From Bryobacterales bacterium (GTDB lineage: Bacteria; Acidobacteriota; Terriglobia; Bryobacterales; Bryobacteraceae), in assembly GCA_020851655.1 (NCBI GenBank), contig JADZCI010000096.1, positions 14,698 to 78,697 of the forward strand: a stretch of DNA of 64,000 nucleotides, written 5' to 3'. A program made the position numbers and the translations under genes. Below, in pieces: positions 2,989-40,732 of this stretch. The notes under the pieces were generated by a model. That model was given only the letters and a program-made list of their open reading frames with translations, had not been told where the DNA came from and ran no database searches. Numbering within the stretch: the stretch's first letter is position 1; each line of letters starts with the position of its first letter.

Positions 2989-3567
2989 TCAGAGGCGCTT
3001 ACGGCGCGCCAGTTCCTTCCGGATCATGGTTACAACGCGCTGCACCCCTTGCGCGAAATTGGGGAACAGGTCCACGTGATGCAGGTGCTGGGCGAGGTGC
3101 GACGGAGGGTCGCATGGCTCGATGCGGAGCGGAATGATGAAGACCGAGTCCAGCGGTTGCCGCCGCGCGCAATCGAGGGCATAACGCAATTCGCTCTGAA
3201 ACACGCTCCGCTTGACGAGCGACTTGCGGGACAGCAGCGCTACGAAGAAGTCGCTCACTTCAATTGAGCGTTCGATCGAACGTGGCCAGTTCTGCCCTGG
3301 CAGGAGGTCGCGCCGGTCCATCCACGGCGCGAAGCCTTCCGCTTCCAACCGGTCGTACAACGTCTCGGCCAAGGCAAGATCTTCCTCGACGTATGCAATA
3401 AAGATGCTCGTGCTCTGGTTCGGGATGAACTCGAAGCGGCCGGCCTCGACTGAGCGGAAAATACCGAGCCTGTCAATTTCGATGGACTTGCCCGCTTCGA
3501 GGCTCGCACGAACGATTCGCGCAACCTGTTCGAGGGTTGATGAGCTACTTTCGCCCACTGCGGCCAC
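2989..3567 (-). CDS. TIR-domain protein with HU-like N-terminal module
   Basis: TIR_2-type pattern: SIFIAYVEEDLALAETLYDRLEAEGFAPWMDRRDLLPGQNW...FFVALLSRKSL..SVFQSELRYAL...FIIPLRIEP, with the conserved Glu at codon 3190-3192. The N-terminus (LEQVARIVRASLEAGKSIEIDRLGIFRS) resembles the helical/first-strand part of HU. Start is uncertain: GTG at 3567 or 3558, ORF maximum 3681. Confidence 0.75.
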   Translation of the reverse strand: MAAVGESSSSTLEQVARIVRASLEAGKSIEIDRLGIFRSVEAGRFEFIPNQSTSIFIAYVEEDLALAETLYDRLEAEGFAPWMDRRDLLPGQNWPRSIERSIEVSDFFVALLSRKSLVKRSVFQSELRYALDCARRQPLDSVFIIPLRIEPCDPPSHLAQHLHHVDLFPNFAQGVQRVVTMIRKELARRKRL

Positions 3568-3775
3568 CCTTGCGCTTCGACTTGCCGGTAAAGACGAATG
3601 CCGGAGGAACGCCGGGGGTAAATTTGCCGATACCAGGGAGATGAGCGGTTCGTCCTTGGCGTAGTTTTTTGAGGATGGCACAGACAGCGCTGTCGACCTG
3701 GTCAGCCGCCGCGCCGGGCGGCAAGTCCGATACGCTCGCCAGCAGTTTTGCGAGTTCTTCCTTGCTCACGGCCAT
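3545..3775 (-). CDS. small HU-like (HU_HIG-like) protein with basic tail
   Basis: MAVSKEELAKLLASVSDLPPGAAADQVDSAVCAILKKLRQGRTAHLPGIGKF matches the HU/IHF N-terminal pattern but lacks the beta-arm. The C-terminus is KSKRKGGRSGRK. Its stop overlaps the predicted start of the TIR gene. Confidence 0.55.
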   Translation of the reverse strand: MAVSKEELAKLLASVSDLPPGAAADQVDSAVCAILKKLRQGRTAHLPGIGKFTPGVPPAFVFTGKSKRKGGRSGRK

Positions 3776-5744: not shown

Positions 5745-6026
5745 TTCAGCTCCTAAGAGACAGCTTGGTATGAAATCTGCACTCAGTATACCGTCTGATG
5801 CGGATCGGGCCGGCTTGCGATGAGGGGGGAGCCACGAGTGCTCTGCAAAGATCAGTCTCAGAGAAGCCTGAAAAAGAGGCGTTCACAATGACGGCGGGAG
5901 AACTTTTCCTTCGTTATCAAGCGGTTCGCGACAATGTTGGCGCCGGCCCACGTGCGATCTCCTACCTTGGGGCTGGCTAAGAAGTGAGCCGAGCCGGAGT
6001 TACCGGCAAAAAGAGCTCACAGAAGG

Positions 6027-6296
6027 TTGGCGATTGTTGTGAGTCAGACCAAGAAGGTAGTGCCGATACGGACTGCGCGCGAAAGCGAAAGCGGGGGAGC
6101 GAAAGGGTGTTGGACGCCTGAAGCGCGCCTGGAACGAATCAGAAGTCTGATCGAATCAATTCTGAAGACGTTCGATAGTGAAAAGCCGAAGGCTACGGTT
6201 GGAGACCTGATCCGCCTGATGCAGATCGAAGACGATCTGCTTGAGAGTCAGCCGAAAGACGTTACGGTGCAATGGATCGAACCGAAACAAGGCTAA
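6027..6296 (+). CDS. hypothetical phage protein; small terminase subunit candidate by position only
   Basis: 89-aa ORF with TTG start, immediately upstream of TerL and overlapping it by 25 nt. No recognisable motif. Confidence 0.35.
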   Translation: MAIVVSQTKKVVPIRTARESESGGAKGCWTPEARLERIRSLIESILKTFDSEKPKATVGDLIRLMQIEDDLLESQPKDVTVQWIEPKQG

Positions 6297-7582
6297 GGGT
6301 CGATCGCGCGATCCTTTACAAGCCTTTGCCATCGCAGAAACTCTTTCACGAGTCGACGTCGCGGTTCAAAGGGTTCTCCGGGCCGGTGGGTTCCGGAAAG
6401 AGCCAGGCCCTCTGCAACGAGGCCATCCGGTTGGCGTATCTCAATCCGGGACGCACTGGATTAGTCGGAGCGCCGACCTATCCGATGTTGCGGGACGCGA
6501 CGCTGACGTCGCTGACCGAGGTGCTGAACGAGAGCGCGATTCCGTTTGAACTGAACAAGGCGGAGAACGTGATCGAACTGCTCGACACCGGGTCGAGAAT
6601 TCTGCTGCGATCCCTGGAGGAATACGAGAGGCTTCGGGGAACCAACCTGGCGTGGTTCGGCGTCGATGAGTTGACCTACACGCATGGGGAGGCATGGCAG
6701 CGTCTTGAGGGGCGGCTTCGAGATCCCAAGGCAAGCGTTCTGCGAGGGTTCGCGGTCTGGACCCCGAAGGGCTTCGACTGGGTTTACCGGCGATTCATCG
6801 CCGCGCCAGTTGACGGATACGAGTGCATCAAGGCCAAGGCGTTTGAGAACCGGCACTTGCTTGACCGGATTCCGGATTACTACGAGCGCCTGAAGCGCAG
6901 TTATGACCAGGAGTTCTACGAGCAGGAAGTCCTGGGCGCCTACCTCGCTTACCAGACGGGTCTGGTCTACCGGGCCTTCGACCGGTCGCGCAATGTCGAG
7001 AAATTGAGGATTGACCGGAGCAAGAGATTGTATTGGGCGTTGGACTTTAACGTAGAACCGATGGCTTCGGTTGTCGCCCAAGTCGACGGCGACCAAGTGA
7101 ACGTGATTGAAGAGATCTTCCTGTCGCGAGCCAGCACGCGGGAGGTTTGCGAAGAGTTCGGACGCCGGTATCCATCGTGGCCAGCCGGTGTGACTGTGTA
7201 CGGTGACGCTTCCGCCAATCAGCGGTCGATTCCGGAAGGAAAATCGAGCCGCGAATACATCGAAGACTTCTTCCGGCACGGACCCTACCGGGCGAGCCAG
7301 GTCCGATTTCCCCGCTCGAACCCAGCGGTTAGGGACCGGGTTGGGCTGATGAACGCCAAGTTGAGAAACGCGGACGGCGACGTGAGCTTGCGCATCCATG
7401 AGGGCTGCGTGGAACTGATCGCCGACTTCGAGCAGGTGACGTATAGGAAGGGCTCGGCCGAGATTGACAAGACGAGCAACCCCAATCGCACACACGTTTC
7501 CGACGCACTGGGGTATCTGATCTGGCAGGAATTCGGAACGAGGCCGGCCACGATCGGCGAACGACCGAGGGGGCTGTTCTGA
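6272..7582 (+). CDS. terL: phage terminase large subunit
   Basis: Walker A is GPVGSGKS and Walker B is LAWFGVDELT. The C-terminal RNaseH-like nuclease acidic residues lie in ALDFNVEP, VYGDASA and HVSDALGY. Confidence 0.9.
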   Translation: MDRTETRLRVDRAILYKPLPSQKLFHESTSRFKGFSGPVGSGKSQALCNEAIRLAYLNPGRTGLVGAPTYPMLRDATLTSLTEVLNESAIPFELNKAENVIELLDTGSRILLRSLEEYERLRGTNLAWFGVDELTYTHGEAWQRLEGRLRDPKASVLRGFAVWTPKGFDWVYRRFIAAPVDGYECIKAKAFENRHLLDRIPDYYERLKRSYDQEFYEQEVLGAYLAYQTGLVYRAFDRSRNVEKLRIDRSKRLYWALDFNVEPMASVVAQVDGDQVNVIEEIFLSRASTREVCEEFGRRYPSWPAGVTVYGDASANQRSIPEGKSSREYIEDFFRHGPYRASQVRFPRSNPAVRDRVGLMNAKLRNADGDVSLRIHEGCVELIADFEQVTYRKGSAEIDKTSNPNRTHVSDALGYLIWQEFGTRPATIGERPRGLF

Positions 7583-7618
7583 GATGAGAGGCCATGTCGC
7601 GAATCACGAGGTAAGAGA

Positions 7619-8998
7619 GTGTTGAACCAAATCTTTCGAGAACATCCCGAGTATGGCAGCAGACTGGAGTCTCTGCAGCGCTTTCGCGATCTCTATGTCG
7701 GCGGAGAGCAGTTCAAGAACAACGTCGATCGCTACCTCGTCAAGCGGCAGCGCGAGCCAGGCGATGTCTACGGCGAGCGGCTGGGACGGGCCTTCTATGA
7801 AAACTACATTGGCTCGATCATTGATTGGTACACCACGACGCTGTTCCGTCGGGAACCAGTGCTGCAGTTTGAAGGCGCGACCGAACCGGCCCGCAAGTTC
7901 TACAACGAACTGACAGAAGACTGCGACTTACGCGGCACGGCGGTTACCGACTACTTGCGGAAACAACTCACCGAGGCCATGGTGACCGGTAAGTCGTACA
8001 CGCTTGTTGACTGTCCAAGAGTCGATATAACACCGGCCACTCGGGCTGACGAAGACCGCACCGGCCTGTCACGCGCCTACCTCTCTGAATTCGACGCAGA
8101 GAGCGCAGTCAATTGGGACCGTCAGCCGAACGGAGAACTGGACTGGATCGTTTTCAGGACCAAACGGATGTGTGCTTCGCCGGATGCTTCCTGGAAATGG
8201 GAGATGCAATGGCGGTATTTCGACCGCCAGAAGTTCGCAGTGTTCCGCAAAGTGGAGGGTGACAAGGGAGACCCCCAGCAGGTAGATGGCGGAAAGCACG
8301 CCCTCTCCGATGCAGGGATTGTGCCGGTTGTTGAGCTCTGTCTGCCCGAGGGGCTCTGGCTGATGAACCGGGCAGCCTATCTCCAGTTGGAGCACTTCAA
8401 CAAGTCCAACGCGCTTGCCTGGGCGCTGACGATGGGCCTGTTTGCCATGCCCGTCATCTTTTCGGACCGGGAGTGGAGCCGGGTGGTGGGCGAATCCTAC
8501 TACCTTCAACTCGGTCCCGAAGACAAGTTCGGATGGACCGAACCGGAAGGCCACGTCTACGAGATTGCGTTGTCCAACCTGGACCGGCTGAAGGAAGAGA
8601 TCTACCGGGTCTGCTATGTCCTACACCAAGCCGGAGGGTCGCTTTCGAAGAACTCGAGTCTGACGGGGCTGAGCAAGCTGCGGGATTACACGGTTACGCA
8701 AGAAATCCTCAGAGGCTACGGAGACGTTGCGAAGGATTTTCTCAAGAAGATCCTCAGGATGGTTGTCCTGGCGCGGAAAGACACCATGAGGATTGATGTG
8801 TCGGGCCTCGACGAATTCGACATCGGCGATTTCAGTAGTGAACTGGCTGACGCGCAACAACTCCTGAGCCTAGGAATTCAATCCGCGACTTTCAAGGGCC
8901 AGTTGTTTAAGAAGCTGGCGTTGAAGTTTCTGTGCGACGTCAATCAGACAGTGAAGGACCAGGTTTCGCGAGAAATCGAAGAGCAATTGAGCAAGTAA
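7619..8998 (+). CDS. putative portal protein
   Basis: 459 aa, directly after TerL and before the scaffold and capsid genes. The N-terminal pattern (YLVKRQRE..VYGERL..AFYENYIGSIIDWY) resembles DUF4055-type portals. This rests on recollection, not a search. Confidence 0.65.
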   Translation: MLNQIFREHPEYGSRLESLQRFRDLYVGGEQFKNNVDRYLVKRQREPGDVYGERLGRAFYENYIGSIIDWYTTTLFRREPVLQFEGATEPARKFYNELTEDCDLRGTAVTDYLRKQLTEAMVTGKSYTLVDCPRVDITPATRADEDRTGLSRAYLSEFDAESAVNWDRQPNGELDWIVFRTKRMCASPDASWKWEMQWRYFDRQKFAVFRKVEGDKGDPQQVDGGKHALSDAGIVPVVELCLPEGLWLMNRAAYLQLEHFNKSNALAWALTMGLFAMPVIFSDREWSRVVGESYYLQLGPEDKFGWTEPEGHVYEIALSNLDRLKEEIYRVCYVLHQAGGSLSKNSSLTGLSKLRDYTVTQEILRGYGDVAKDFLKKILRMVVLARKDTMRIDVSGLDEFDIGDFSSELADAQQLLSLGIQSATFKGQLFKKLALKFLCDVNQTVKDQVSREIEEQLSK

Positions 8999-9004
8999 AA
9001 GGAG

Positions 9005-9598
9005 ATGAGCATGGACGCGACAAATTCGAAATCCGCGGCCTCGGACGCAGCCGGCCTGCCGGACATTCGCAACCTTGTGAAGAACGTGCTGGAAGAGATG
9101 GCAGTGGTGGAACACCAGCGGGCGGAACCCGCATACAAGGTCGAGTTAACAGAAGAACGCCGGCGGCGGGAATCGCTCGAGAAGCGGGTTAACGAGCTGA
9201 TTGAAGAGAACAAGCGCAGCCGCGCCGCGGCGGACGAGGCCGATCGCGCCTCACAGATCAGGGCGGAACTGCAGCGATTGGGTGTGCAGAAAGTGGACCT
9301 GGCGTTCCGAGTCGTCAAGGATGACATCCGCCGCGGTGATGGAGGCGACCTGATCGCACGCGGCGGCGAGGGCGAGCAGCCGTACAAGGAATACCTGGCC
9401 TCCTTTGTGAGCCAGAATCCCGAGTTTCTGCCGCCTCGAATGGCCGGTGGATCGGGAAGCAGCTCCGCGAAGAAAGAATCGACCCACGGCGCAAGTATCG
9501 ACATTGAGCGAATCAGACCGGGCATGAGCCAGGAAGAACTCCAGCGAGTGCGAGATCAGATCGCTTTAGTCGCCTCACAGACACTGAGAGGCGAGTAA
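9005..9598 (+). CDS. putative scaffolding protein
   Basis: 197 aa, highly charged and coiled-coil-like (ERRRRESLEKRVNELIEENKRSRAAADEADRASQIRAELQRLG). It lies between the portal and the major capsid gene. Confidence 0.55.
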   Translation: MSMDATNSKSAASDAAGLPDIRNLVKNVLEEMAVVEHQRAEPAYKVELTEERRRRESLEKRVNELIEENKRSRAAADEADRASQIRAELQRLGVQKVDLAFRVVKDDIRRGDGGDLIARGGEGEQPYKEYLASFVSQNPEFLPPRMAGGSGSSSAKKESTHGASIDIERIRPGMSQEELQRVRDQIALVASQTLRGE

Positions 9599-9719
9599 CC
9601 CCGGAGCCCGTCTGAGATAGCCGAAGGGCCGGTGAAGGGCAGCGTCGGTGACGTAGGCCCGAAGTCTGCCGTAGAGCTAGGACTGTCGCTCCTAAACCAA
9701 GCCAAGAGAGGAAAGCTGA

Positions 9720-10631
9720 ATGGCTATTATCACTTCTGCAAACCTTGCGAACGCGATTGTCAAGCTGGTGGCCGCCGATGCGCTGCCCGCCTTGATGGGG
9801 AACCTTGTCATGGGGAACCTGGTCAACCGCGATTTCGAGCCGACGCTGGCGCAAGCCGGGGACACGGTCAACGTACCGATCCCGCCCGTCATGACCGCGA
9901 CGAACCTCATCGAGGGCGCTTCGGTTGTGGCGCAGAACGCCAACGTCGGTAACGCTCAGATCGTTCTCAGCACTCATGCTGAAGCGACGTTCCAGATTCC
10001 GGACGTGACCAAGATCATTGCCGTGCCCGATCTGCTGAAGCTGTACATGCAGCCGGCGATGATTGCGCTGGCCGAGAAAGTGGAATCGGACCTGCTCAAC
10101 CTGTATGCGCAGTTCACGGCCAACACTCCGGTCGGCACGGGCGGCGCCGCCATCACTGAAGCAGTCGTGGACTCGGCGGAGACGGCTTTGTTCAACGCCA
10201 AGGTGCCTGCCAGTGAGGGCCGGTTCCTCGTCGTCGACTCAAATGCATACGGCGCCCTGCGGCAGAACCCGCGGTTTAGCGAATACCAGAAGGCCGGTGA
10301 CGCCGGTCTGCGGGCGCTGATCGACGGCACACTGGGCAAGATCAAGGACTTCTATGTGTTCCGTTCCCAGTTTGTAGCCAAGACGGGCACTGGCCCCACG
10401 ACGACCAACAACCTTGCCTTTGCGCGCAGCGCGATTGGCCTAGCGGTTCGCCGCCTGCCGAAGCCGCTGCCGGGCACGGGCGCGATTGCCGAGTATGCGG
10501 AATTGGGCAACTTCGGCATGCGCGTGGTGATGAGCTATCAACCGAACACGCTCGCACAGCAGTTCACGGTAGACATGCTCTACGGGTGCGGTGTTCTTCG
10601 CAACAATTTCGGCGTCCAGGTTCGCAGCTAG
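9720..10631 (+). CDS. major capsid protein (P22-coat-protein-like family)
   Basis: The N-terminus (ITSANLANAIVKLVAADALPALMGNLVMGNLVNRDFEP..AGDTVNVPIP) matches the characteristic start of the roughly 300-aa P22_CoatProtein family (..VNRDY...GDTV.V.P). The position is consistent. Confidence 0.75.
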   Translation: MAIITSANLANAIVKLVAADALPALMGNLVMGNLVNRDFEPTLAQAGDTVNVPIPPVMTATNLIEGASVVAQNANVGNAQIVLSTHAEATFQIPDVTKIIAVPDLLKLYMQPAMIALAEKVESDLLNLYAQFTANTPVGTGGAAITEAVVDSAETALFNAKVPASEGRFLVVDSNAYGALRQNPRFSEYQKAGDAGLRALIDGTLGKIKDFYVFRSQFVAKTGTGPTTTNNLAFARSAIGLAVRRLPKPLPGTGAIAEYAELGNFGMRVVMSYQPNTLAQQFTVDMLYGCGVLRNNFGVQVRS

Positions 10632-10641
10632 GAGCCATAGC

Positions 10642-10667
10642 GGGACCCGATCCCGGGATCGGGTCCC
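10642..10667 (+). terminator. perfect 26-bp palindrome (GGGACCCGATCCC/GGGATCGGGTCCC) 11 nt after the capsid stop codon; possible attenuator or RNA-stabilising hairpin
   Basis: Read directly from the sequence. The arms are exact reverse complements with CCCGGG at the centre. No downstream T-run, so it is not a canonical intrinsic terminator. Confidence 0.4.
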
Positions 10668-10702
10668 ATCCACCGAAGTGATCGGCAAGAAGGGACAAGA
10701 AG

Positions 10703-11011
10703 ATGGACGTCAAGAGTTACTTTCGAAAGATCCGGGACATGGAAGCCTCGATCGAGGACCGTTTCCTGGTGGTGATCAGCAATGCGACGGTCGACGGCGG
10801 GAGGGAGGGGATCTACAGCGAGGTTCCCCGCTTCGTGGCTTGTCAACTCGCCGTGGAGGGCCGCGCCAGGCTCGCGTCGGCAGAAGAGGCCGAACAGTAC
10901 CGGGTGGAACAAAGGGCGGCCTGCGAGGAGTTTGAGCGGACAAGAGAGGACAATCGCGGCAACGCGAGCCGGCCTGGTCCCAAGCCGTCCGGGAAGGTCA
11001 TCCGGAACTAA
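10703..11011 (+). CDS. hypothetical phage head-associated protein
   Basis: 102-aa ORF in the operon between the capsid and connector genes. No motif recognised. Confidence 0.4.
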   Translation: MDVKSYFRKIRDMEASIEDRFLVVISNATVDGGREGIYSEVPRFVACQLAVEGRARLASAEEAEQYRVEQRAACEEFERTREDNRGNASRPGPKPSGKVIRN

Positions 11012-11026
11012 AGGGGACGGATAACA

Positions 11027-11779
11027 ATGGCTCTCTTTGCGGACCACGATCTGACTACGATTGAAGACTTGGCCGGAGTCGATCATAACGTCCTTTCCAT
11101 CGCCGCAGTCGAAGGGATTGACCTAACCAAGAAACTCGCACTCGCCCAGCAGTTACTGATACAGGACATCTCGCGAGTCCTGGCGAAGGATCCAGGGCAG
11201 GGTGCGACTTATGACGCCGGACAAGTTGTACGCACCCCAAGTCTCCGGCTGTGCCATGCGTTGAAAGCGATTGAGCTCACATATCAAGAAGCTTTCGCCG
11301 GCCAGGGCGTGGACAGATTCGAACGCTGCCGGGTCACATATTCGGCAGAGGCAAAGAGAGTCCTGACGGCGGAGTTGGAGCGAGGGCTGCCGGTAGTGCT
11401 CAACCCGCTCCCGCGACCCACGGGCCCCGTTGTAACGTCGAGCGCCGGGACAGGGCCTGCCGGCCCAATCGACTTTGCTGTCAGTTGGATAAACCAAGCA
11501 GGGGAGGAGAGCAGTCTCGGGACGCTGGTAGCGATTGAGAACAGCAGCGGCGAGATGATCACTGTTACGCCGCCCACCGCGCCGCCATTTGCGACGGGAT
11601 GGATTGTGTACGCAAGCCTACCGGGTGAACGTCCCGGAAGGCAGTATGGGCCGCTCGGACTGAATGAGTCCTGGCGCGCGCCCGATCAACTGTCGAGCCT
11701 GGGGCCAGCCGGGGAAGGGCAGACGGGGAACGTTGTCTTGCGGCTTTCGCCTGGCACGAATCTCCTTTGGAGGGGCTAG
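11027..11779 (+). CDS. putative head-tail connector/adaptor with C-terminal FN3/Ig-like domain
   Basis: Position in the cluster. The N-terminus is gp6-like (LTTIEDLAGVD...KKLALAQQLLIQDI). The C-terminus is beta-rich (IDFAVSWINQAGEESSLG..ITVTPP..WIVYAS). Confidence 0.45.
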   Translation: MALFADHDLTTIEDLAGVDHNVLSIAAVEGIDLTKKLALAQQLLIQDISRVLAKDPGQGATYDAGQVVRTPSLRLCHALKAIELTYQEAFAGQGVDRFERCRVTYSAEAKRVLTAELERGLPVVLNPLPRPTGPVVTSSAGTGPAGPIDFAVSWINQAGEESSLGTLVAIENSSGEMITVTPPTAPPFATGWIVYASLPGERPGRQYGPLGLNESWRAPDQLSSLGPAGEGQTGNVVLRLSPGTNLLWRG

Positions 11780-12276
11780 AAATGGCACTTGTTCGAGAAG
11801 TGGTAACGCTCCTGCACACCCTACTGTCATCCGAGCGAGGGATCGCGAAGGGATGGGCCGCAGGTTCGGAAGCGCTGGAATCCGGACTGCCAAGGGTGGG
11901 CGCCGACCAAATTATCACCAACCACATTCCAGCCAACCTGCTGGCGCAACAAAACGCTGTGCGATATCCCCGCTTCCAGATCTATTGCGCGCGTGTCGAG
12001 AATCAGATGAGAGAGAAGTTCAACCGGTTCTCCGGGACGGCGCAATTGACGGTGGAGATCCACCACTCCGGGGAGAAATGGGACAGCGTGTCGTCGGGTC
12101 TCAGCCTCTATGTTCAGGCGGTAACCGACGTGGTCGAAGCGAACCGAGGGGAGTTAGGGGCCGGCGTACACCTGCCGGGCCGGTACTCCGTGGAGATCGA
12201 TGCTCCAAAGGCAGGCGGACGAGGGTATCTGCAATCGGCCAGGATCCTAGTCCCGGTGGAAATAGTCAGGTCATAG
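11767..12276 (+). CDS. putative head-closure/tail-terminator protein
   Basis: 169 aa. Overlaps the previous gene by 13 nt and precedes the major tail gene. Assigned by position only. Confidence 0.4.
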   Translation: MEGLEMALVREVVTLLHTLLSSERGIAKGWAAGSEALESGLPRVGADQIITNHIPANLLAQQNAVRYPRFQIYCARVENQMREKFNRFSGTAQLTVEIHHSGEKWDSVSSGLSLYVQAVTDVVEANRGELGAGVHLPGRYSVEIDAPKAGGRGYLQSARILVPVEIVRS

Positions 12277-12296
12277 TCTAACTACTGGAACAAGCA

Positions 12297-13466
12297 ATGT
12301 CCTCATACATATCCTCAGTAAACAATCGTCTGTACGCAGCACTAGAAAGCACGTACGGCACTATTCCGCCTCCAACGCCAGGCGACCGGACTCCGTTCGT
12401 TCAGCTTCGCACGACGCAAAAGATGATCGTTCCCCAGCGACGTGATAAGACGGGGACGCGCTCCTTTAACGGAGTACCGGGCATACCGAAGCGGGACACA
12501 AGCTTCACACTGACCAGCCATCTGTTCGGTGGAACCAGTCCAGCGGCCACCGGCCTAAGAGCCCTCCTTCAGAGCGCGTTTGCCGGCCCGGTACTGGAGT
12601 TCAGCGGCGCCCGGGTTGCCGCGGCACAAAGGGCCAGCACAATTCAGACAATCGCGCCACACAGGCTGACGGTGGGACAAGGGATCATCTACGGGGACGA
12701 GATTCGCTTTGTCGCGGCGGTGATGGACAGTATGACCATCCAGCTTTCCGCGCCGTTCAGTAACGGAATATCCTCCGGCGCAGTGTTGAATCCATCCTAT
12801 ACATTCTGCCTGGGCGATACCGTGCCGAGTGTGAGTATCTTCGATTATTGGGACCCGCAGAGCGCCGTCCACAGGATCCTCCGAGGCGCCGGAGTGAATG
12901 AATTGAAGGTTGCGATTAACGGCGACTTTCATTCGATGGAATTCTCCGGGATTGCGGCCGACCTTGCCGATAGCGTCAGCTTCGAGAGCGGCGAAGGGGG
13001 GCTGCCGCAGTTTCCGCCGGAACCCGAGGCCGGATCGTTGCCTTATGACGTAATTCCAGGACATCTGGGTCAGATTTGGATCGGGGCGGCGCCGGCCAGG
13101 TTCTGTACGGTTACCGAAGGCGTTATCCGTCTCAACAACTCCCTGGACACAAGGAAGGACGAGTTTGGGTGTCCCATCCCGAAAGCCCTGGTTCCCGGAG
13201 CGCGGATTGTCGACGTTGCGTTCTCCTTGTACGAGCAAGACGACGCGGAGACAGCAGCGCTGTATCAAGCAGCACGGCAACGGTCACCTATAACGCTTAC
13301 GCTGCAGCTTGGCCAGTCGGCCGGACAATTGTGCGGGCTGTATGTTCCCAGTTTTGTTCCTGAAGTGCCGTCGTTCGATGATAGTGAACCACGGCTGACG
13401 TGGAAGTTCGACGGATCACGAGCTCAGGGAGCTGTCAATGATGAATTGTTCATCGCCTTTGGATGA
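12297..13466 (+). CDS. putative major tail (tube) protein
   Basis: 389 aa, immediately upstream of the G/GT frameshift chaperone pair. That position is the conserved location of the major tail gene in siphoviruses. Confidence 0.5.
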   Translation: MSSYISSVNNRLYAALESTYGTIPPPTPGDRTPFVQLRTTQKMIVPQRRDKTGTRSFNGVPGIPKRDTSFTLTSHLFGGTSPAATGLRALLQSAFAGPVLEFSGARVAAAQRASTIQTIAPHRLTVGQGIIYGDEIRFVAAVMDSMTIQLSAPFSNGISSGAVLNPSYTFCLGDTVPSVSIFDYWDPQSAVHRILRGAGVNELKVAINGDFHSMEFSGIAADLADSVSFESGEGGLPQFPPEPEAGSLPYDVIPGHLGQIWIGAAPARFCTVTEGVIRLNNSLDTRKDEFGCPIPKALVPGARIVDVAFSLYEQDDAETAALYQAARQRSPITLTLQLGQSAGQLCGLYVPSFVPEVPSFDDSEPRLTWKFDGSRAQGAVNDELFIAFG

Positions 13467-13836
13467 GAGCGCTGAATACTCCAGCACAAAGTGGGTTACC
13501 TCAGCCACTCACCCTGGCGTTCGATTTCGGTTGGCCCGTCTCTCTCTTGGCAGGCGGATCGCTCTGGCGAGGAGCGTTCGCGCGCTGTGGCAGCGTCTGG
13601 AGTATCACGGCGCTGGTGAATCGATCGATGACAGGCTGTCGGAGGCTGTCCTGGCCGCCGAGTTGGATGCGGACTACCTCAAGTGGGGACTGGTGGCGGT
13701 TGAGGGCCTGGTCATCGATGGATGCCCAGCCAGCGTCCAACAACTCATCGAGACCGGCCCCGAGGCATTGTGCAGGGAGATTGTCGCGGCTATCCGGGCT
13801 GAACTGGGGTTGTCTGAAGACGAACGAAAAAACTGA
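13438..13836 (+). CDS. tail assembly chaperone (G-like)
   Basis: 132-aa acidic ORF between the major tail and tape measure genes. It ends ...EDERKN* with the slippery heptamer A_AAA_AAC directly before the stop. Confidence 0.6.
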   Translation: MMNCSSPLDESAEYSSTKWVTSATHPGVRFRLARLSLGRRIALARSVRALWQRLEYHGAGESIDDRLSEAVLAAELDADYLKWGLVAVEGLVIDGCPASVQQLIETGPEALCREIVAAIRAELGLSEDERKN

Positions 13837-14186
13837 TTCTCGCATTCCACTTTTTCACATCGAATCCAGCCGGGTGGAACTGCGAAGATTGCCGGCGACA
13901 ACGGCTGGAGATCAAGCGCAACTGCAGTCTGCATAGCACTTTCGACCCAAACGCGACGCGTGTCGTGTGGACGGCAAGGGGGTTCGCCTCAACGTCGTGT
14001 CCACGGTCGGTGATTACGGCTGACAGTTTGGGCTGGATAGAGCTGTTTGAACACTGGCTGTCGTTCGGTTCGACTGCTGATGACGAGTTAGCGGCGAAAG
14101 ACCAACACGCCCTGCGGGTGTTGATGGCAGAGCACAGAACGCGGCTTGAACAGGACAGAAATGAACGGAGCCGTCCGGCGAGGTAA
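13438..14186 (+). CDS. tail assembly chaperone frameshift product (GT-like, about 249 aa, -1 shift at 13827-13833)
   Basis: I translated the -1 frame from 13833 (LILAFHFFTSNPAGWNCEDCRRQRLEIKRNCSLHSTFDPNATRVVWTARGF...). It has no stop until TAA/TGA at 14184-14186, 18 nt before the tape-measure-like gene. Confidence 0.5.
13827..13833 (+). promoter_or_regulatory. candidate -1 programmed ribosomal frameshift site A_AAA_AAC
   Basis: An X_XXY_YYZ heptamer in the correct phase (AAA at 13828-13830, AAC at 13831-13833 in the G frame). The -1 frame is open from here to 14186. Confidence 0.5.
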
Positions 14187-14203
14187 GAACCAAGGACTGG
14201 GGA

Positions 14204-14845
14204 ATGAGACGAAGCAAACCGATTGATGCCTTCATAGAGCGCTTTGGAGCGACGACGCAATCCTCGAGTGGCTTGCTGGCCGGCACGGCTGGCACTCCGC
14301 GGCAAACGGACGCTACGGTTACAGAGGCGGCCCCTGCCGGCACGATGAATGAACTGTCGGTTCTCGTTCAGAGCCTGGCGCAGCAAACGAAAGCGGTTGG
14401 GGACAACACGGCGGCACTGGGTCAAGCGACTCAAAGCGTTGACTCCATGGGGGCGAACTTTTTGTCGTTTGCCCGCCAAGCGCTGACCAGCGTGTCTTCT
14501 GGTGGGGGATTTCTGGGCCTGAGTCCGATCGTCTCGCTCATTGGGGGACTATTTCGCCGCTCAAAGACTCCGGAAGCGCAGCCAGAATTACCCAAGTTCA
14601 ACATGCCGGACCCGCTGTCCTGGAACCTAGTTACCAGCCCATCGTCGAGTCCTGCCACGCAAGCGGTGACTTATACAGACGCCGGAGTTCCCAAGGCTCC
14701 GGCTGTGAACAACCAAGTTACCGTACACATTCAGGCGATGGACGCCAGATCCTTTCTGGAGCGCAGCAGTGAGATTGCTGGCGCTCTTCGATCCGCGATG
14801 CTTCACTCCAGTTCAGTCAACGATGTTATGGCGGAGATGGAATGA
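14204..14845 (+). CDS. short tape-measure-like protein
   Basis: 213 aa, directly downstream of the G/GT pair. It has a helical N-half and a glycine-rich hydrophobic segment (GGGFLGLSPIVSLIGGLF) typical of tape measure proteins. Confidence 0.5.
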   Translation: MRRSKPIDAFIERFGATTQSSSGLLAGTAGTPRQTDATVTEAAPAGTMNELSVLVQSLAQQTKAVGDNTAALGQATQSVDSMGANFLSFARQALTSVSSGGGFLGLSPIVSLIGGLFRRSKTPEAQPELPKFNMPDPLSWNLVTSPSSSPATQAVTYTDAGVPKAPAVNNQVTVHIQAMDARSFLERSSEIAGALRSAMLHSSSVNDVMAEME

Positions 14846-15201
14846 GCGCCGTACGATTCCCCAACCTGAAGACGGGCCTGCCGGTTCAGCACCCGTATCG
14901 TCGATTGACGCACTATTCGACGCGGCTTCTCGAGTTCCTCGACGGAAGTGAGCAACGAATTCCGTTGCAAGGTTCCGCCCGGCCTGAGTGGCGGATCGCC
15001 TTGTCGAAGCTGGACGAGACCGAGTTGAGCCGATTCTCCGACCTGTTCGACGCCAGCCTGGCTGGCACGAGAGATATCCAACTGACGGATCCCATTGACG
15101 GACAGGAGTACACCTGCGACTTCGCAGAGCCGGAACTGGACGTCGAGAGCGATGCCCTGGGCAGCGGCAGTGTCGAGATCCGCCTTGTAGGGAAGAAGTG
15201 A
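14842..15201 (+). CDS. distal tail protein-like (DUF2460/gpM-position) paralogue 1
   Basis: 119 aa. Shares the pattern FP.L.TG..VQ...R......DG.......W.....L...E.....LF....G.......DP with the next gene. ATGA overlap with the tape-measure-like gene. Confidence 0.5.
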   Translation: MSAVRFPNLKTGLPVQHPYRRLTHYSTRLLEFLDGSEQRIPLQGSARPEWRIALSKLDETELSRFSDLFDASLAGTRDIQLTDPIDGQEYTCDFAEPELDVESDALGSGSVEIRLVGKK

Positions 15202-15202
15202 C

Positions 15203-15991
15203 ATGCTGATCTTCCCTCAGCTACAGACTGGCGGCGTCGTGCAGCAAGTGCGCAGGATCAAGCGGAGCAGGGTGGTTGATGTAGCGCGCGCCGACGGTGA
15301 CCGTACACGATACCTTGATCCGCGTGGAGACACGATCTCCTGGACCCTCCAGTTCGATAACTTGTCCGGTGAGGAATGGGGGGCCATAGAAGGGCTCTTC
15401 CGGGAGTGCCAGGGACGGTTCCGGTCATTCGTCTTCATCGATCCGCTGGGGAATATGTTGAGTCACAGCGAAGCACTGACGGAAAGTGTCTGGAGTCCTG
15501 ACCCGTATGTGGATGTTGCAGACTCTCAGGCAGACGCATGGGAAGGGCAAAGCGGCAGCAGGATGTTGAACACGGGCCAGCAGGACGGGTCAATCAGCCA
15601 AGTCGTTCCAGTCACGGCCGCACTGCAGTACACACTGAGCGCTTTCTTGCGGGGATCGGGCACAGGAAGCGTGGAACTGTTCATTGAAGGGGCCGGCACG
15701 CAGAGGCGAACCTCGACCCAAGTCAGCACGCAGTGGAAGAGGCACAGCCTTACGGCAGGTCTCGGTTTGGACAGCCCGGATTGCCGATTTGGAGTCTCGA
15801 TTCCGGCCGGATACGCAATTGATTGTTGCGGTTTTCAAGCAGAGGCGCAGCCATCGCCATCCGCGTACAAGCCAACTCTCAAAGGAGGTGTCTACCTGGA
15901 GACAAGGTTCGACACCGACACGCTTTCCGTTGAGTCACGTTCGCCGGGTTGCTTCACCACCGCATTGCAACTGATCAGCCGAGGGAACTGA
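15203..15991 (+). CDS. distal tail protein-like paralogue 2 with C-terminal beta-rich extension
   Basis: 262 aa. The N-terminal roughly 90 aa align with the preceding ORF (IFPQLQTGGVVQQVRR...DG...WTLQFDNLSGEEWGAIEGLFRECQGRFRSFVFIDPLG). The extension may be a carbohydrate-binding-like domain. Confidence 0.55.
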   Translation: MLIFPQLQTGGVVQQVRRIKRSRVVDVARADGDRTRYLDPRGDTISWTLQFDNLSGEEWGAIEGLFRECQGRFRSFVFIDPLGNMLSHSEALTESVWSPDPYVDVADSQADAWEGQSGSRMLNTGQQDGSISQVVPVTAALQYTLSAFLRGSGTGSVELFIEGAGTQRRTSTQVSTQWKRHSLTAGLGLDSPDCRFGVSIPAGYAIDCCGFQAEAQPSPSAYKPTLKGGVYLETRFDTDTLSVESRSPGCFTTALQLISRGN

Positions 15992-16000
15992 GGAATCGCG

Positions 16001-19000
16001 ATGCAGGACATTTTCTTGACCAAAGAGCAGGTTGAACTGCCCACTCCCATATTGGCGTTCGATTGCACTCTCGCCGACGGGCGGACCGAACGCTGGGCAT
16101 CTCATCGTGTGGTAGTCGAAGGGGAGGTATACGAACCCCGGGTCTTGGACCAAAGCCGGTTCGAGATGCGCGCGGCCGGCGATTCCGCCGAGAGCCGGTC
16201 CACCCTGACCCTGTCACTCGATAACCTTGACTCACATTTCTCAGAAGTCGAATCTGTTCTGGGATGGAAGGGCGCGAAGCTGCTAGCAAGGTTCGTATTT
16301 TACGACCTCGTTACCGATCAGGCGGTGACTGCACCGACGGCGGTCTACACCGGAACAGCAGATCCTCCCGTGGAGATCACAGAGTCCACGATGACCCTCA
16401 CGTTTCGCAGCCGGCTAGAGTTCAGCCGTAGTCTGTTGCCGCAAGTGAGAGTGCAAGCGCGGTGTCCCTGGCTCTTTCCTCGAACTCCAGAAGAGAGGCA
16501 ACTGGCGTTAGATGGGGCCGCACAGGAGAAATATTCGCCGTTTTACCGGTGTGGATACTCTCCTGATGTCGAGGGTGGAGTGGGGAACCTTGCCGTCGAT
16601 CAACCGTTCACGTCCTGCGATGGCACCCGAAAGTCCTGCATGGAACGAGGGATGTTTGACCGGGACCGCGTGGGAAACGAAACGAGGCGCTTCGGCGGCA
16701 TCGAGTTTGTGCCTGCCTCGATTCTTGTGCGGTCGTACGGCGACAAGACCCAACATGTCAGCGAGTCGTCGGCAAGCGCAACCAAGTACAACGACTTTGT
16801 ACCGCTTATCTACGGCACCGCCTGGCATAAGCCTTCGATCGTGTTCTCTCGAAATGACGGAAACCTGCTTCACCTGGAAGTGTTGTTGGGAACCGGTCCG
16901 ATTGAAGGAGTGCGGCGGGTTGTCGTAAATGACGTCGAGATGCCGCTGGGTATTAGTGGCGCAGACATGACGTCAACGGGCTGGTACAACGTTTGCAGCT
17001 ACGGCAACCGGAACGGTGGATTCAACCTAGACTTCACAGCGGCTGATGGAACTCCAGGGGGAGACCCCTACGGGGGAATGGCTTTCCTTTCGATTGTCGT
17101 TCCGAACCGGGTCGTGTCAGGGAGCAGCCAGCCGAAGATTCAGGTACTCCTTGACGGGCTTCGAGTACCTACTTTCTCTGACGACGGTCCCATTGCGGAG
17201 TTGTTCAGCCGGAACCCGGCATGGATCATGCTGGACATCTTGCGGCGAACCGGATGGACCTTGCATGAGATCGACCTGGGGTCTTTCGTTCGAGCCGCCA
17301 GCGTGTGTGACGAGCTGATCCAGGTGCTGAATCTGAATCAGGAGACCGTCTCCGTACCGCGCTTCGAAGTGAACCTGGTGCTGGCGCGCCGGCGAACCGT
17401 GGCGGAAGTGCTTCGCGGGATCCGAGCCACTGCCGGTCTGCTTCTGCGCTTGGGGCAGGATGGCAGGTTGGAACTGGCCGCAGAAGGAACGCTTCGAGCG
17501 CAGCATGCGGCAAAACCGGCCGGCAGTAACAGCACCACGACACTGTCAGGCGGGTGGCCTGCTTATGAGTTTGGCGACGGGACGGACGGTACATCGGGGA
17601 TCTTGAAGCGCCCGGGCGGCGGTCCCACACTGCGGATGTGGTCTAACCCCACCGCCGAAACTCCCAACCGGTACAGCGTCGAATTTCAGGACGCGTTCAA
17701 TGGCTATCAGCAAGACAGCATCTCGCTGGTAGACGTCGATGATGCGATTCGAGTGGGGTACGAGATCAGCGCCCCGCTGCCAGCTTTGGGCATTCCAACT
17801 TGTGAACAAGCACTTCGAGTCGTCAAGTTTCAATTGGCTCGTTCGGTTAACGGCAACCGGTTTATTGAACTGGCGACCAGTGTCCGAGGCCTCGCGATTC
17901 GTCCCGGGGACATCATCGCGATCACGTACGGCAAAGAGGGTTTCGACAGGACGCCTTTCCGCGTACTGTCCGTGCAGCCAACGTTCGACTATCAGACGGT
18001 ATCGATCCAGGCGCAGAAACATGAAGATGCCTGGTATGACGAGCTTGGATCTCCCAGCGGCGGGCTATCGTCCGAGCCTCGCCGCGGCGGGGTAGGCAAT
18101 GGCATTCCGCGCCCGTTGGTCCCGACGCTGATCGATCAGGACGGGAAGCCGGGTTTTGGAATCGAGGAAGAGGAAATCATCGGGACCGATGGCGGCGGCC
18201 AAGTGATGTTGCACGTCAACTTCACTCCACCGAAGCGTCCTTCCGGCGAGGCTTGGCGCCGCCCCCTAGTAAGCATGATTCCCACGATTACAGACGGAGG
18301 TTCACTTGAACCGGGGCGCATTTACTACTACGCCGTCAGTGGAATCGCCGGCAACGGTGACGAGAGCGGGCTATCGTTTGTGGTGACTGTCGAGACACCA
18401 TCGGCTCCCGGCGGTTACACGGTGACCCTGTCAGGGATGTGGTTTCCGGGAGGCTACCGCGGTTTTCGCCTCTATCGAGGCGACAGCCCGGCAACTCTGG
18501 TCTCGGTGGCGGAGTCAGACACGTTGTCCACGGAGGTCACCGATGCGGGAGATACTCCGATGGGCGATGTTCCGCCGGACGAGAATTATGACCATGCGAA
18601 CTTCTATTCGCGCATGGAGATTGTGCCTCCGGTCTCGGTCGAGTCGTCAGGGCCAGACTGGGTGAGCGCCAGCGCCATCGGCTTGCCTGACGACGCCTTG
18701 AAGGGATACATCGTCCGCATCACGGAGGGTCGCGGTGCGGGCCAGGAAGTTCGAATCCTGTCGAATTCCGGCCAGACAATCACGGTGGCTCAGCCGTGGA
18801 CTGTGGGTCTCGATGCGGGCAGCCGATTTGCCGTTGTTGAGGCCGGATGGCAGTTTGCCGGAACCACCAACACCAGCGATATCCGGTTCACGGCGCCGAA
18901 CCGGCGCTGCAGTGTCATCCAGATTGTAGGCCGGTCGGCGAATTTCGAGGATGTGGAATGTGACCCGGCGCGATGCTTTGTGGCGCGGTGGACCATTGGC

Positions 19001-19921
19001 GGATCGGCGGGTGGGGAAGCCGACGGAGACATTCCGCCCAAACCGACGTTTTCCGTCAAAGCCGGACAAGCGCAGTCGGTCGAAGTCAGCGGGATCGGAT
19101 TCGACAGCTTGGAAAATACGGAATCGATCCAGGCCGGGACACTGATCCTATACTACTGGGATGAACTCACAGCGGGCACGTGTCCGCAACTGAACCTCGG
19201 ATTCGCTCCGGCGGATGAAGTCCTTGAGCTCCAGAGTGACGCGGAGTTTGTTGTGGGCGACATGCTCCAAGTCGATCAAGAACTGGTGCAGGTCCTGAGC
19301 GTTGACGGTTCGCGACACTATCAGGTGGACCGGGGCAAACTCGGCACTCCAATAGCCGGTCATGCCGCGGGGGCGATGGTCGAATTGCTCGCTCGGAACA
19401 TTGCCATCACGGCATTTCCGAAACAATTCTTTGCCAGTTCAGCCAGTTCTGCGTTCATGTGGCCGGTGAGCGCCGGGACATGGCGAATCGCCGCAGCGGA
19501 GTTGTACGTGACAAACTCGATGGGGAACAGTCCTACCGCTGCTCTCCATTTCACCTCGACAACCGATCGTGGGCTGAAGGTCCTGTCCGGCGGTCAATAC
19601 ACGCTCCAGGTTCCTGGGCAACTTGCTGTTCGATCGAATTGCGTTCCTCCTGTACTCGTCACGGAACCGAAGGTGGTTCGCGATGTCCAGGCGACGATTC
19701 TTGTTGCACCGCAGGGCGCACCTCTAGTTGTTCGCCTGACCGCCGACGGATCACCGCTGGCTGAACTGACGATTCAGGGCGGACAGACCGGTTCCGATCC
19801 GCTGTCTGGCGCACTGCCGGTGCTGCCGGCTGGCTCAAAACTCAATGTCGATATTCTTTCAGTGGGTTCTGGTGGCGGAGTGGAGACGGGTAGGGACCTG
19901 ACGGTAACCGTATTGCTTTGA
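16001..19921 (+). CDS. host-specificity / central tail hub protein (lambda gpJ-like, Phage-tail_3 + FN3)
   Basis: 1306 aa. NPAWIMLDILRRTGWTLHEIDLGSFVRAASVCDE matches the gpJ/Phage-tail_3 signature. An FN3-like segment is present (GRIYYYAVSGIAGNGDESG...YRGFRLYRG). The N-terminal roughly 250 aa resemble hub proteins (DUF2163/gpL-like). Confidence 0.85.
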   Translation: MQDIFLTKEQVELPTPILAFDCTLADGRTERWASHRVVVEGEVYEPRVLDQSRFEMRAAGDSAESRSTLTLSLDNLDSHFSEVESVLGWKGAKLLARFVFYDLVTDQAVTAPTAVYTGTADPPVEITESTMTLTFRSRLEFSRSLLPQVRVQARCPWLFPRTPEERQLALDGAAQEKYSPFYRCGYSPDVEGGVGNLAVDQPFTSCDGTRKSCMERGMFDRDRVGNETRRFGGIEFVPASILVRSYGDKTQHVSESSASATKYNDFVPLIYGTAWHKPSIVFSRNDGNLLHLEVLLGTGPIEGVRRVVVNDVEMPLGISGADMTSTGWYNVCSYGNRNGGFNLDFTAADGTPGGDPYGGMAFLSIVVPNRVVSGSSQPKIQVLLDGLRVPTFSDDGPIAELFSRNPAWIMLDILRRTGWTLHEIDLGSFVRAASVCDELIQVLNLNQETVSVPRFEVNLVLARRRTVAEVLRGIRATAGLLLRLGQDGRLELAAEGTLRAQHAAKPAGSNSTTTLSGGWPAYEFGDGTDGTSGILKRPGGGPTLRMWSNPTAETPNRYSVEFQDAFNGYQQDSISLVDVDDAIRVGYEISAPLPALGIPTCEQALRVVKFQLARSVNGNRFIELATSVRGLAIRPGDIIAITYGKEGFDRTPFRVLSVQPTFDYQTVSIQAQKHEDAWYDELGSPSGGLSSEPRRGGVGNGIPRPLVPTLIDQDGKPGFGIEEEEIIGTDGGGQVMLHVNFTPPKRPSGEAWRRPLVSMIPTITDGGSLEPGRIYYYAVSGIAGNGDESGLSFVVTVETPSAPGGYTVTLSGMWFPGGYRGFRLYRGDSPATLVSVAESDTLSTEVTDAGDTPMGDVPPDENYDHANFYSRMEIVPPVSVESSGPDWVSASAIGLPDDALKGYIVRITEGRGAGQEVRILSNSGQTITVAQPWTVGLDAGSRFAVVEAGWQFAGTTNTSDIRFTAPNRRCSVIQIVGRSANFEDVECDPARCFVARWTIGGSAGGEADGDIPPKPTFSVKAGQAQSVEVSGIGFDSLENTESIQAGTLILYYWDELTAGTCPQLNLGFAPADEVLELQSDAEFVVGDMLQVDQELVQVLSVDGSRHYQVDRGKLGTPIAGHAAGAMVELLARNIAITAFPKQFFASSASSAFMWPVSAGTWRIAAAELYVTNSMGNSPTAALHFTSTTDRGLKVLSGGQYTLQVPGQLAVRSNCVPPVLVTEPKVVRDVQATILVAPQGAPLVVRLTADGSPLAELTIQGGQTGSDPLSGALPVLPAGSKLNVDILSVGSGGGVETGRDLTVTVLL

Positions 19922-19995
19922 ACAGCGATCGACGGGGCTTGCCGGGATCGAGCAATCGAGTCTATACTCGGATTTTCGAACTCGAACTTGCTGGG

Positions 19996-20271
19996 ATGGT
20001 TCGGATGACAGGCCACGACGATTTCGATCCGATCACGGTTCAGCGCGAAGCGGCTATGTTCTACGGACTCTTTTTGCGCGGCCACTCGGCCGACAAACTG
20101 AGGCGAGACATAGACATTCCGCGCGAGACACTCGATCGGTGGCTCAGCCGGCCTCATTACGAGGGTGATTTTCGTGATAACGCCCGGCGTGTCTATGAGT
20201 TCCGCAAGCAGGTGCTGGCCGTGTTTGAAGAATTGGTCTGCCAAGCGCGGTCCAAGGCGCGCCTCCAATAG
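19996..20271 (+). CDS. hypothetical small protein at the distal end of the phage-like cluster
   Basis: The ORF track gives 19918-20271 with a TTG start overlapping the J stop. An internal ATG at 19996 (MVRMTGHDD) is more plausible. It has helical, weakly HTH-like content (DIPRETLDRWLSRP). Confidence 0.3.
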   Translation: MVRMTGHDDFDPITVQREAAMFYGLFLRGHSADKLRRDIDIPRETLDRWLSRPHYEGDFRDNARRVYEFRKQVLAVFEELVCQARSKARLQ

Positions 20272-38137: not shown

Positions 38138-38139
38138 TG

Positions 38140-40689: not shown

Positions 40690-40732
40690 GCGAGTTCGAG
40701 ATTCCTAGCAACCATTGAATCACGTCCACGAT

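Follow-up and report, generated by a model that had tools for sequence, protein, structure and literature searches.

Why does the chromosome of a Bryobacterales bacterium (Acidobacteriota) carry, between housekeeping genes, a full series of tailed-phage head and tail genes and none by which a phage would replicate, integrate or lyse its host? The question is raised by a stretch of 64,000 nucleotides (nt) of contig JADZCI010000096.1 (assembly GCA_020851655.1), hereafter the window, in which a first-pass annotation, made by a model from the sequence, had proposed a locus resembling a gene transfer agent (GTA) or a domesticated phage particle. Results on synteny and selection support that proposal. 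The locus is probably an anciently domesticated, vertically inherited siphovirus head-tail cluster of Bryobacterales, that is, a GTA-like viriform, and that it is a selectively maintained host element is held with high confidence. That the cluster would work as a GTA is given even chances, and the wider proposition of an ancient, order-wide Bryobacterales GTA, independent of all known GTAs and the first in Acidobacteriota, is put forward tentatively, at somewhat less than even chances.

The listing of open reading frames (ORFs) shows 16 co-directional ORFs on the + strand at window positions 6027-20271, with small gaps or overlaps between them, including 15 co-directional siphovirus morphogenesis genes at 6027-19921. 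All cluster ORFs were scanned with Pfam and PHROG profiles and the large ORFs in the rest of the window with Pfam; listing and profiles together bear out the cluster of about 14 kb in siphovirus order that the first-pass annotation had described, and the cluster encodes what looks from these matches like a complete set for a particle and for DNA packaging. No cluster ORF matched a prohead protease, integrase, repressor, replication protein, holin or endolysin in either collection, the remaining large ORFs are cellular, and the scans thus agree with the earlier statement that integrase, repressor, replication and lysis genes are missing from the 64 kb. The same holds for its statement on tRNA genes and flanking repeats: no tRNA and no att repeat was found in the window, and no direct repeat of at least 14 nt brackets the cluster. 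Searches with Rfam at gathering thresholds returned no match over the window. The claimed lack of a compositional break stands as well, with GC flat across the window (0.57-0.61), GC at third codon positions of 0.69 in the cluster vs 0.73 in host genes, and host-like codon usage (relative synonymous codon usage correlated with that of host genes at r = 0.91). On the left, the cluster is flanked by uvrC, a TIR-domain gene, a methyltransferase gene and pfk, and on the right by DPP-IV, ruvX, YceG/mltG, an EamA transporter and a radical-SAM gene; Pfam confirms pfk and DPP-IV/ruvX/mltG, the flanks named beforehand. Judged by integrase, att repeats and modules for repression, replication and lysis, the window locus is not an integrated prophage.

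The same cluster recurs across the order. Scoring 8,000 candidates from a collection of 5.8 billion proteins gave 998 relatives of the tail tube; those listed are nearly all 387-391 aa long and 46-52% identical, many are encoded on contigs of 0.2-2 Mb, and those with names belong to Bryobacterales, Bryobacteraceae or Acidobacteriota. When one genome per GTDB species was scanned, 489 species-representative genomes were found to encode a tube relative. The 80 loci examined among these come from 80 different assemblies, all Bryobacterales/Solibacteraceae-type metagenome-assembled genomes (MAGs) save one labelled Bordetella, and each of the 80 genomes holds one copy of the cluster. Genes g01 to g15 are collinear on a single strand with near-identical spacing, and the median span from the large terminase (TerL) to the J-like gene is 13.5 kb. 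Searching with the capsid brought up 5,240 protein clusters; the best 120 all measure exactly 303 aa and are 79-100% identical, and they include two entries from the cultured Paludibaculum fermentans, one of them on a complete genome of 9.48 Mb. A gene of about 918 aa downstream of J was found in 78 of 88 loci (e.g. L084:17678-20434), and its product combines a 'non-contractile tail sheath' TIM barrel (PF23845, 8.7e-16) with tail-sheath-like domains. This gene is absent from the window, from its close relatives and from P. fermentans, and has been lost from several lineages. Two loci of the survey call for separate mention. The one labelled 'uncultured Bordetella sp.' (L001, CAZDGT010000031.1) carries the cluster with a tube 52% identical to that of the window, and the label is probably a binning or taxonomy error. 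In the other (L063:15900-20000), the portal, scaffold and capsid genes are inverted downstream of the tail module, leaving the cluster split and rearranged.

The position of the cluster was followed through its relatives. In the three closest ones, whose tubes are 94%, 79% and 73% identical, the cluster adjoins the same methyltransferase and pfk genes. Where recovered in these three relatives, the right flank reads DPP-IV-ruvX-mltG in L081 and ruvX-mltG in L082, which has lost DPP-IV; the L199 contig ends inside g15 and does not reach it. Synteny, proposed earlier as a check, therefore places the cluster at the same pfk/DPP-IV locus in close relatives where both flanks are visible, and finds it collinear throughout the order. 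At distant loci the neighbours differ and are still cellular (peptidase M20, LpxD, isocitrate dehydrogenase, PQQ dehydrogenase), and in P. fermentans P105 (CP063849.1, within 1223630-1244541) the cluster has Fe-ADH, GH28 and DUF362 genes on one side and a metallophosphatase gene on the other. Clustering of 401 flanking ORFs showed 53 loci with the ~918-aa gene directly after J and, in 26 loci, the same Wzt-type polysaccharide ABC-transporter gene after it. The 122 nearest flanking ORFs fall into ABC_tran, Peptidase_M24, TPP enzymes, PMT, riboflavin synthesis and similar cellular families of Pfam, and integrase, recombinase and lysozyme are absent among the 25 commonest of these families. When capsid, tube, TerL and portal are concatenated and a neighbour-joining tree is built from them, loci with a common flank family group into clades, and the Wzt context on the right flank spans deep branches. 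In addition, pairs of loci with similar cluster proteins also tend to have similar fragments of the neighbouring Wzt gene (Pearson r of pairwise identities 0.65-0.85), the mean identity of the capsid being 81% vs 75% for the adjacent Wzt ABC ATPase.

Selection on the cluster is of the kind seen in its neighbours. Synonymous sites are saturated against L081 in both cluster and flanks. Against the closer relative L199, the ratio of nonsynonymous to synonymous divergence (dN/dS) runs from 0.022 (capsid) to 0.173 (g07) over 14 genes of g01-g15, a set that leaves out the -1 frame T extension of the tail chaperone and g16, and is 0.038 for pfk and 0.104 for the methyltransferase gene of the flank. 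Synonymous divergence (dS) from L199 is 0.24-0.56 in cluster genes and 0.37-0.42 in the flanks, which indicates that the cluster and its neighbours diverged together. A second check suggested at the outset, selection and codon usage, thus yields ratios like those of flanking genes and host-like codons. The genes are also largely intact: of 59 complete loci, 52 give one uninterrupted match each for TerL, portal, capsid and tube. Among the seven others, five bear 'contig_' names of MFD type, which we take to mark long-read assemblies, where frameshift errors are common; the remaining two are L082 and L050. In 165 of 172 loci, an in-frame A_AAA_AAY heptamer leads into a -1 frame that stays open for 80 codons or more.

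What was found, then, is a chromosomal structural cluster that lacks replication, integration and immunity genes, both in the window and in about 60 related loci, and whose vertical inheritance under purifying selection is seen in synteny, flank congruence, the Wzt correlation and dN/dS; these are two of the features that define a GTA or viriform, the others being the packaging of essentially random host DNA, in pieces shorter than the encoding locus, and production under host regulation with delivery of DNA to recipient cells. A full head, a packaging motor and a tail without autonomous propagation, inherited vertically and in single copy throughout an order, form the genomic signature of a GTA.

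The cluster has no close counterpart among isolated phages. The whole cluster had no megablast match among 50,697 phage genomes and the tube no tblastn match in isolate phages, and the best capsid match in an isolate phage is 30% identical (Streptomyces phage Keanu); the nearest isolate relatives of the capsid are phages with genomes of 37-87 kb. An exhaustive capsid search collected 188 representatives at E <=1e-30, with full-length relatives forming a continuum down to about 33% identity. The nearest capsid outside the conserved group (about 59%) is encoded on L169, a contig of 60 kb (Logan SRR21686420) with a GC content of 0.53, which shares TerL, portal, capsid, g07, g08 and tube with the cluster in the same order at 26-58% identity (g07 26%). 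Unlike the cluster, L169 has its modules separated by additional genes, another kind of tail tip and accessory genes of phage type (PAPS-reductase/DUF3440 and anti-Pycsar Apyc1). Probably, then, L169 represents a true virus, of the type from which the cluster descends. The contigs of two capsid relatives at greater distance (P0131 and P0142) are too short to interpret.

Among known systems, RcGTA of Alphaproteobacteria offers the closest likeness. In each, about 14-16 kb of head and tail genes alone stand in siphovirus order among core genes, with lysis and regulatory genes outside, and each is conserved at the level of an order-like clade under purifying selection. A G/GT chaperone and, probably, a tape measure of small size are common to the two. 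A Phage-tail_3 host-specificity protein of about 1300 aa and a distal tail protein resembling DUF2460, in the window below the Pfam cut-off, may be further likenesses, and both domains are common in ordinary siphophages too. The differences lie in the particle. RcGTA has an HK97-type capsid with a prohead protease, whereas here a scaffold accompanies a P22-coat-like capsid (PF11651/PF25209) and no ORF matched a protease; RcGTA has a small single-domain tube, whereas the tube here is a 389-aa PF18906 protein of the fused T5/P74-26 type. No NlpC/P60 domain or BR0599-type hub, compared with RcGTA, was detected in the cluster. With another family of capsid, a scaffold where RcGTA has its protease and a tube of another type, the element does not belong with RcGTA and was most likely domesticated independently. 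The profiles here uphold what the first-pass annotation had said of capsid, scaffold and protease and of independence from RcGTA, and the acidobacterial lineage that it had guessed is that of the source organism, a Bryobacterales MAG. Further differences from RcGTA are the host phylum and the ~918-aa TIM-barrel protein that most members add, and the element is known here from its genes only. BaGTA (Bartonella), VSH-1 (Brachyspira), Dd1, VTA and PBSX (Bacillus subtilis) are likewise phage-derived, chromosomal and non-self-propagating, each in one host lineage. PBSX and VSH-1 keep lysis genes in their clusters, whereas the Bryobacterales cluster does not, and a breadth of 489 species genomes is comparable to that of RcGTA only.

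If the cluster works as a GTA, its operon would be expressed, under host control, by a subpopulation of cells. Procapsids would assemble on the scaffold and would be filled with DNA by TerL, perhaps together with g01, through a headful mechanism. The heads would then receive a short tail, built of trimeric tube rings and ending in a lambda-like M/L/J tip, and lysis functions encoded elsewhere would release the particles, which would deliver host DNA to related cells.

Several points weigh against the cluster being a domesticated element with this function. The particle, its packaged DNA and the transfer are predictions from the genes, and a PBSX-like or other non-transfer role would fit the sequence data equally well. 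Neither lysis genes nor regulators were identified, and these would have to be encoded elsewhere. Given the 37-87 kb genomes of the capsid's relatives, the head may hold the entire 14-kb locus, unlike that of RcGTA, and g01 could be a sequence-specific small terminase. Core genes are split in 7 of the 59 complete loci, L082 represents a lineage with a decaying cluster, and the ~918-aa tail gene is missing in the lineage of the window. Moreover, left flanks vary between deep clades, so that rare relocation or transfer is possible, and the flank survey, which lists the 25 commonest families, could miss a singleton integrase.

The most serious of the rival explanations, which we nevertheless regard as unlikely, keeps the domestication and changes the purpose: the particle would be a PBSX-like DNA-packaging killer, or would serve DNA release, the biofilm matrix or defence. 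The data show selection for an intact particle and packaging motor and do not indicate what these are for; the J-like and tail-tip genes are under purifying selection, which any cell-binding function would explain equally. The sequence likewise gives no preference for killing over transfer, and no toxin or lysin domain was found in the tail-tip proteins with Pfam or PHROG. That TerL, portal and capsid have all been kept speaks for DNA packaging being important.

Improbable, by comparison with a domesticated cluster, is a non-autonomous mobile element, either a satellite or the late module of a prophage whose other functions are supplied in trans by a helper or a distant locus. Virus-detection pipelines do call these regions proviruses (IMG/VR; Demina et al., 2025, PMC11924767), and both the variable left flanks and the existence of related true phages would suit such an element. 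Against it, no integrase or att site was found in the 64-kb window or within about 3-6 kb of the cluster in about 60 other genomes; the cluster is single-copy in each of the 80 genomes examined, its dS equals that of flanking host genes, and the flanks are congruent with its phylogeny. Known satellites have an integrase but not a full tail module.

An ordinary decaying prophage remnant without present function is very improbable. The presence of structural genes only and the absence of the ~918-aa tail gene from the lineage of the window would agree with decay, as would L082, in which the J-like gene is broken by two insertion sequence (IS) elements (L082:13715-20603; an rve family transposase and Transposase_mut), TerL, g07 and g08 are fragmented and DPP-IV is missing. 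Decay is contradicted by order-wide conservation over 489 species genomes, by dN/dS of 0.02-0.17, by a programmed frameshift kept in 96% of loci and by a capsid of invariant length that is about 80% identical.

Equally far-fetched is an active temperate phage family that integrates repeatedly into Bryobacterales, for which one could cite Demina et al. (2025; PMC11924767), who describe a group of 'proviruses' that is specific to Bryobacterales and whose members share their gene order. A locus of 14-16 kb with morphogenesis genes only cannot replicate, integrate or lyse, and its synonymous divergence equals that of neighbouring host genes. Nor was a longer version seen among the IMG/VR contigs listed: at least 595 of its contigs carry the cluster, many beginning exactly at g01, and none of the 106 listed exceeds about 24 kb, which suggests that virus-calling software extracts the block alone and never a larger phage genome. 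A tailocin, with tail genes and no capsid, portal or terminase, was rejected since the cluster has conserved genes for capsid, portal, scaffold and a TerL that is intact, and a satellite of the cf-PICI type, with integrase, replication and head genes and no tail, was rejected since integrase and replication genes are lacking and a full tail module is present.

Turning to the individual genes, the first-pass calls of TerL, portal, scaffold, capsid, tube, distal tail protein and J are backed by profiles or models, while the small terminase (g01) and the connectors (g06 to g08) are placed by position. The possible small terminase g01 (6039..6296, +; 85 aa, or 89 aa if it starts at TTG 6027) overlaps the start of TerL and has no Pfam or PHROG match; homologues, on average 37% identical, were detected at that place in 41 of the first 80 loci, and its dN/dS is 0.10. 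TerL (6272..7582, +; 436 aa) matches PF03237 (Terminase_6N, 1.4e-8), PF17289 and phrog_2 (5.7e-37). Its translation shows intact ATPase and nuclease motifs (Walker A GPVGSGKS, Walker B WFGVDE, nuclease Asp residues), its dN/dS is 0.044 and its mean identity to the window across loci is 59%. The portal (7619..8998, +; 459 aa) matches phrog_145 (2.6e-45), with a mean identity of 55% across loci and a dN/dS of 0.039. The scaffolding protein (9005..9598, +; 197 aa) is recognized by phrog_206 (1.4e-5) and its position between portal and capsid (dN/dS 0.067, mean identity 55%). The major capsid protein (9720..10631, +; 303 aa), P22-coat-like with an HK97 fold, matches PF11651 (2.5e-19) and phrog_283 (4e-46). 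Its AlphaFold2 (AF2) model (pLDDT 87) shows the HK97 fold, the closest structures in Foldseek being the capsids of mycobacteriophage Douge and P22, and it is the gene with the mean identity to the window of 76% and the dN/dS of 0.022.

Three genes between head and tail have no significant profile match. The role of g06 (10703..11011, +; 102 aa) is unassigned; it was found in 58 of the first 80 loci (dN/dS 0.10) and may be a head-completion or decoration protein. The conserved head-tail connector candidate g07 (11027..11779, +; 250 aa) and the tail-terminator or stopper candidate g08 (11782..12276, +; about 164 aa, or 169 aa from TTG 11767) gave no match in Pfam, PHROG or PDB profile searches. 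They occur in 75 and 78 of the first 80 loci, with dN/dS of 0.17 and 0.085, respectively, and a word-indexed homologue search for g07 found six proteins only.

The tail begins with the tube (12297..13466, +; 389 aa), which matches PF18906 (1.3e-9) and has a mean identity to the window of 48% across loci. Its AF2 model (pTM 0.73) matches the P74-26 tail tube (8ed0, E 8e-12) and T5 pb6, and the tube is accordingly modelled as the fused double-domain type that builds trimeric rings in P74-26 and T5. The tail assembly chaperone G/GT (13438..14186, +) called a correction: the listed ORF 13463-13936 was rejected as spurious, and the real G lies at 13438-13836 (132 aa). In the three-frame translation, G ends in ...CGA AAA AAC TGA, which provides a canonical -1 slippery heptamer A_AAA_AAC at 13827-13833; the T extension follows in the -1 frame (13833-14186), open to 14186, so that a G-T fusion product is expected. 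The next gene (14204..14845, +; 213 aa), between chaperone and distal tail protein, had been called the tape measure. That call is kept as probable from its position, a Gly-rich hydrophobic segment (GGGFLGLSPIVSLIGGLF) and its sole and weak PHROG match (phrog_3779, E 0.0024); its dN/dS is 0.11, and its length would imply a short tail.

The distal tail protein g13 (14842..15201, +; 119 aa), lambda gpM-like or DUF2460-like, matches PF09343 at E 0.0011, and weak PDB profile matches are to lambda tail tip protein M (E 0.02) and a distal tail protein (E 0.012). The second tail-tip protein g14 (15203..15991, +; 262 aa) has a DUF2460-like N-terminus (PF09343, 3.5e-5) followed by a beta-sandwich or a part resembling a carbohydrate-binding module (CBM), with weak PDB profile matches (E 0.0025-0.03) to 'Xylanase' chains, taken as CBM-like, and to the RcGTA head spike fibre. 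Both PF09343 matches in the window lie under the Pfam cut-off (18.9 and 23.8 bits vs 30.4), and relatives have an unmarked precomputed match. The J-like central tail fibre or host-specificity protein (16001..19921, +; 1306 aa) matches PF13550 (7.4e-9; 36.1 bits vs a cut-off of 23) and phrog_31 (1.6e-26), with a mean identity of 45% across loci and a dN/dS of 0.06. The order of a gpM-like g13, a protein in the L position and J points to a lambda-like tail tip, in which the similarity of g13 to gpM is weak.

The last ORF of the series had been counted with the cluster; it is probably the 88-aa g16 (20005..20271, +), whose membership in the particle is uncertain. It contains a segment like a helix-turn-helix, has no Pfam match and shows weak PHROG matches to small terminases (E 0.006). 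It is 95-97% identical in L081 and L082, which exceeds the conservation of its neighbours, and occupies the site where most relatives have the ~918-aa tail gene. It could be a regulator or a second DNA-recognition subunit, and it may lie outside the particle set.

The only lead on host regulation of the cluster is a leader with alternative hairpins (5880..6044, +), which retains conserved blocks in an alignment of the window, L081 and L082 despite saturated synonymous divergence. It holds three complementary hexamers, GTGAGC (5984-5989), GCTCAC (6015-6020) and GTGAGT (6039-6044, which covers the likely GTG start), and among them an inner GCCGG/CCGGC hairpin and a GAAGG ribosome-binding site (6023-6027); the RNA folds at -23.7 kcal/mol (z -3.2). 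Pairing of the middle hexamer is possible with the one before it as well as with the one after it, so that the leader may act as a translational switch, with ribosome-binding site and start codon masked in one state and accessible in the other. Its hairpins are restricted to the subclade of the window and absent from distant loci; no universal upstream k-mer or hairpin was found in 69 loci, and sites in a scan for sigma-70 promoters and terminators were no more frequent than in shuffled sequence.

Elsewhere in the window, the TIR-domain protein of the left flank (2989-3681, - strand), encoded between uvrC and the methyltransferase gene, has an HU-CCDC81-like N-terminal domain; its gene is not at that position in L081, L082 and L199 and may therefore be a recently acquired defence gene. 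The other 37 kb encode a glycosyltransferase, FdhD, molybdoenzymes, sulfatases, ATP-grasp and transglutaminase proteins, a rhamnosidase, TPR proteins and mraW-ftsI-murE-murF. Within this part, at 37277-46493 (- strand), duplicated transglutaminase-like, circularly permuted ATP-grasp, Alpha-E and DUF2126 amidoligase genes were seen, which are unrelated to the phage-derived cluster.

To our knowledge, few independent GTA lineages exist, the alphaproteobacterial one alone being widespread. Full-text literature searches combining gene transfer agents with Acidobacteria, Bryobacter or Acidobacteriota returned no description of an element of this kind. However, such loci have probably been published as viruses. 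A recent study reported Bryobacterales-specific 'group (i)' putative proviruses, defined by sequence and gene order shared among contigs linked to Bryobacteraceae (Demina et al., 2025, Microbiome 13:79, PMC11924767). The group includes P. fermentans P105, Ca. Solibacter usitatus Ellin6076 and strain KBS 96 and is called newly reported and widespread; the terms 'gene transfer', 'defective', 'cryptic' and 'domesticat' do not occur in the text (PMC11924767). These proviruses are probably the present cluster, which P105 carries. Much of the assembled sequence in purified soil viromes was found to be non-viral and possibly derived from GTAs (Trubl et al., 2018, PMC6172770), and a recent review asks what the true prevalence of GTAs is (PMC11841831).

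If the reading of the locus is true, it provides a second case of a head-tail cluster inherited vertically throughout an order, this time in another phylum and with other capsid and tube families, and the domestication of phages into DNA-carrying particles would be a recurrent outcome. P. fermentans P105 offers a cultured and fully sequenced host, and Ca. Solibacter usitatus and strain KBS 96 are probably hosts as well. At least 595 'viral genomes' in IMG/VR, and probably a published group of 'proviruses', would be host genes and not viruses, and counting them as viruses would inflate estimates of lysogeny and of virus-host links for Acidobacteriota. Bryobacterales are among the most abundant bacterial lineages of soil. 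Particles that move host DNA between their cells would, if the cluster acts in this way, explain a share of the 'proviruses' and of the non-viral DNA recovered in soil viromes.

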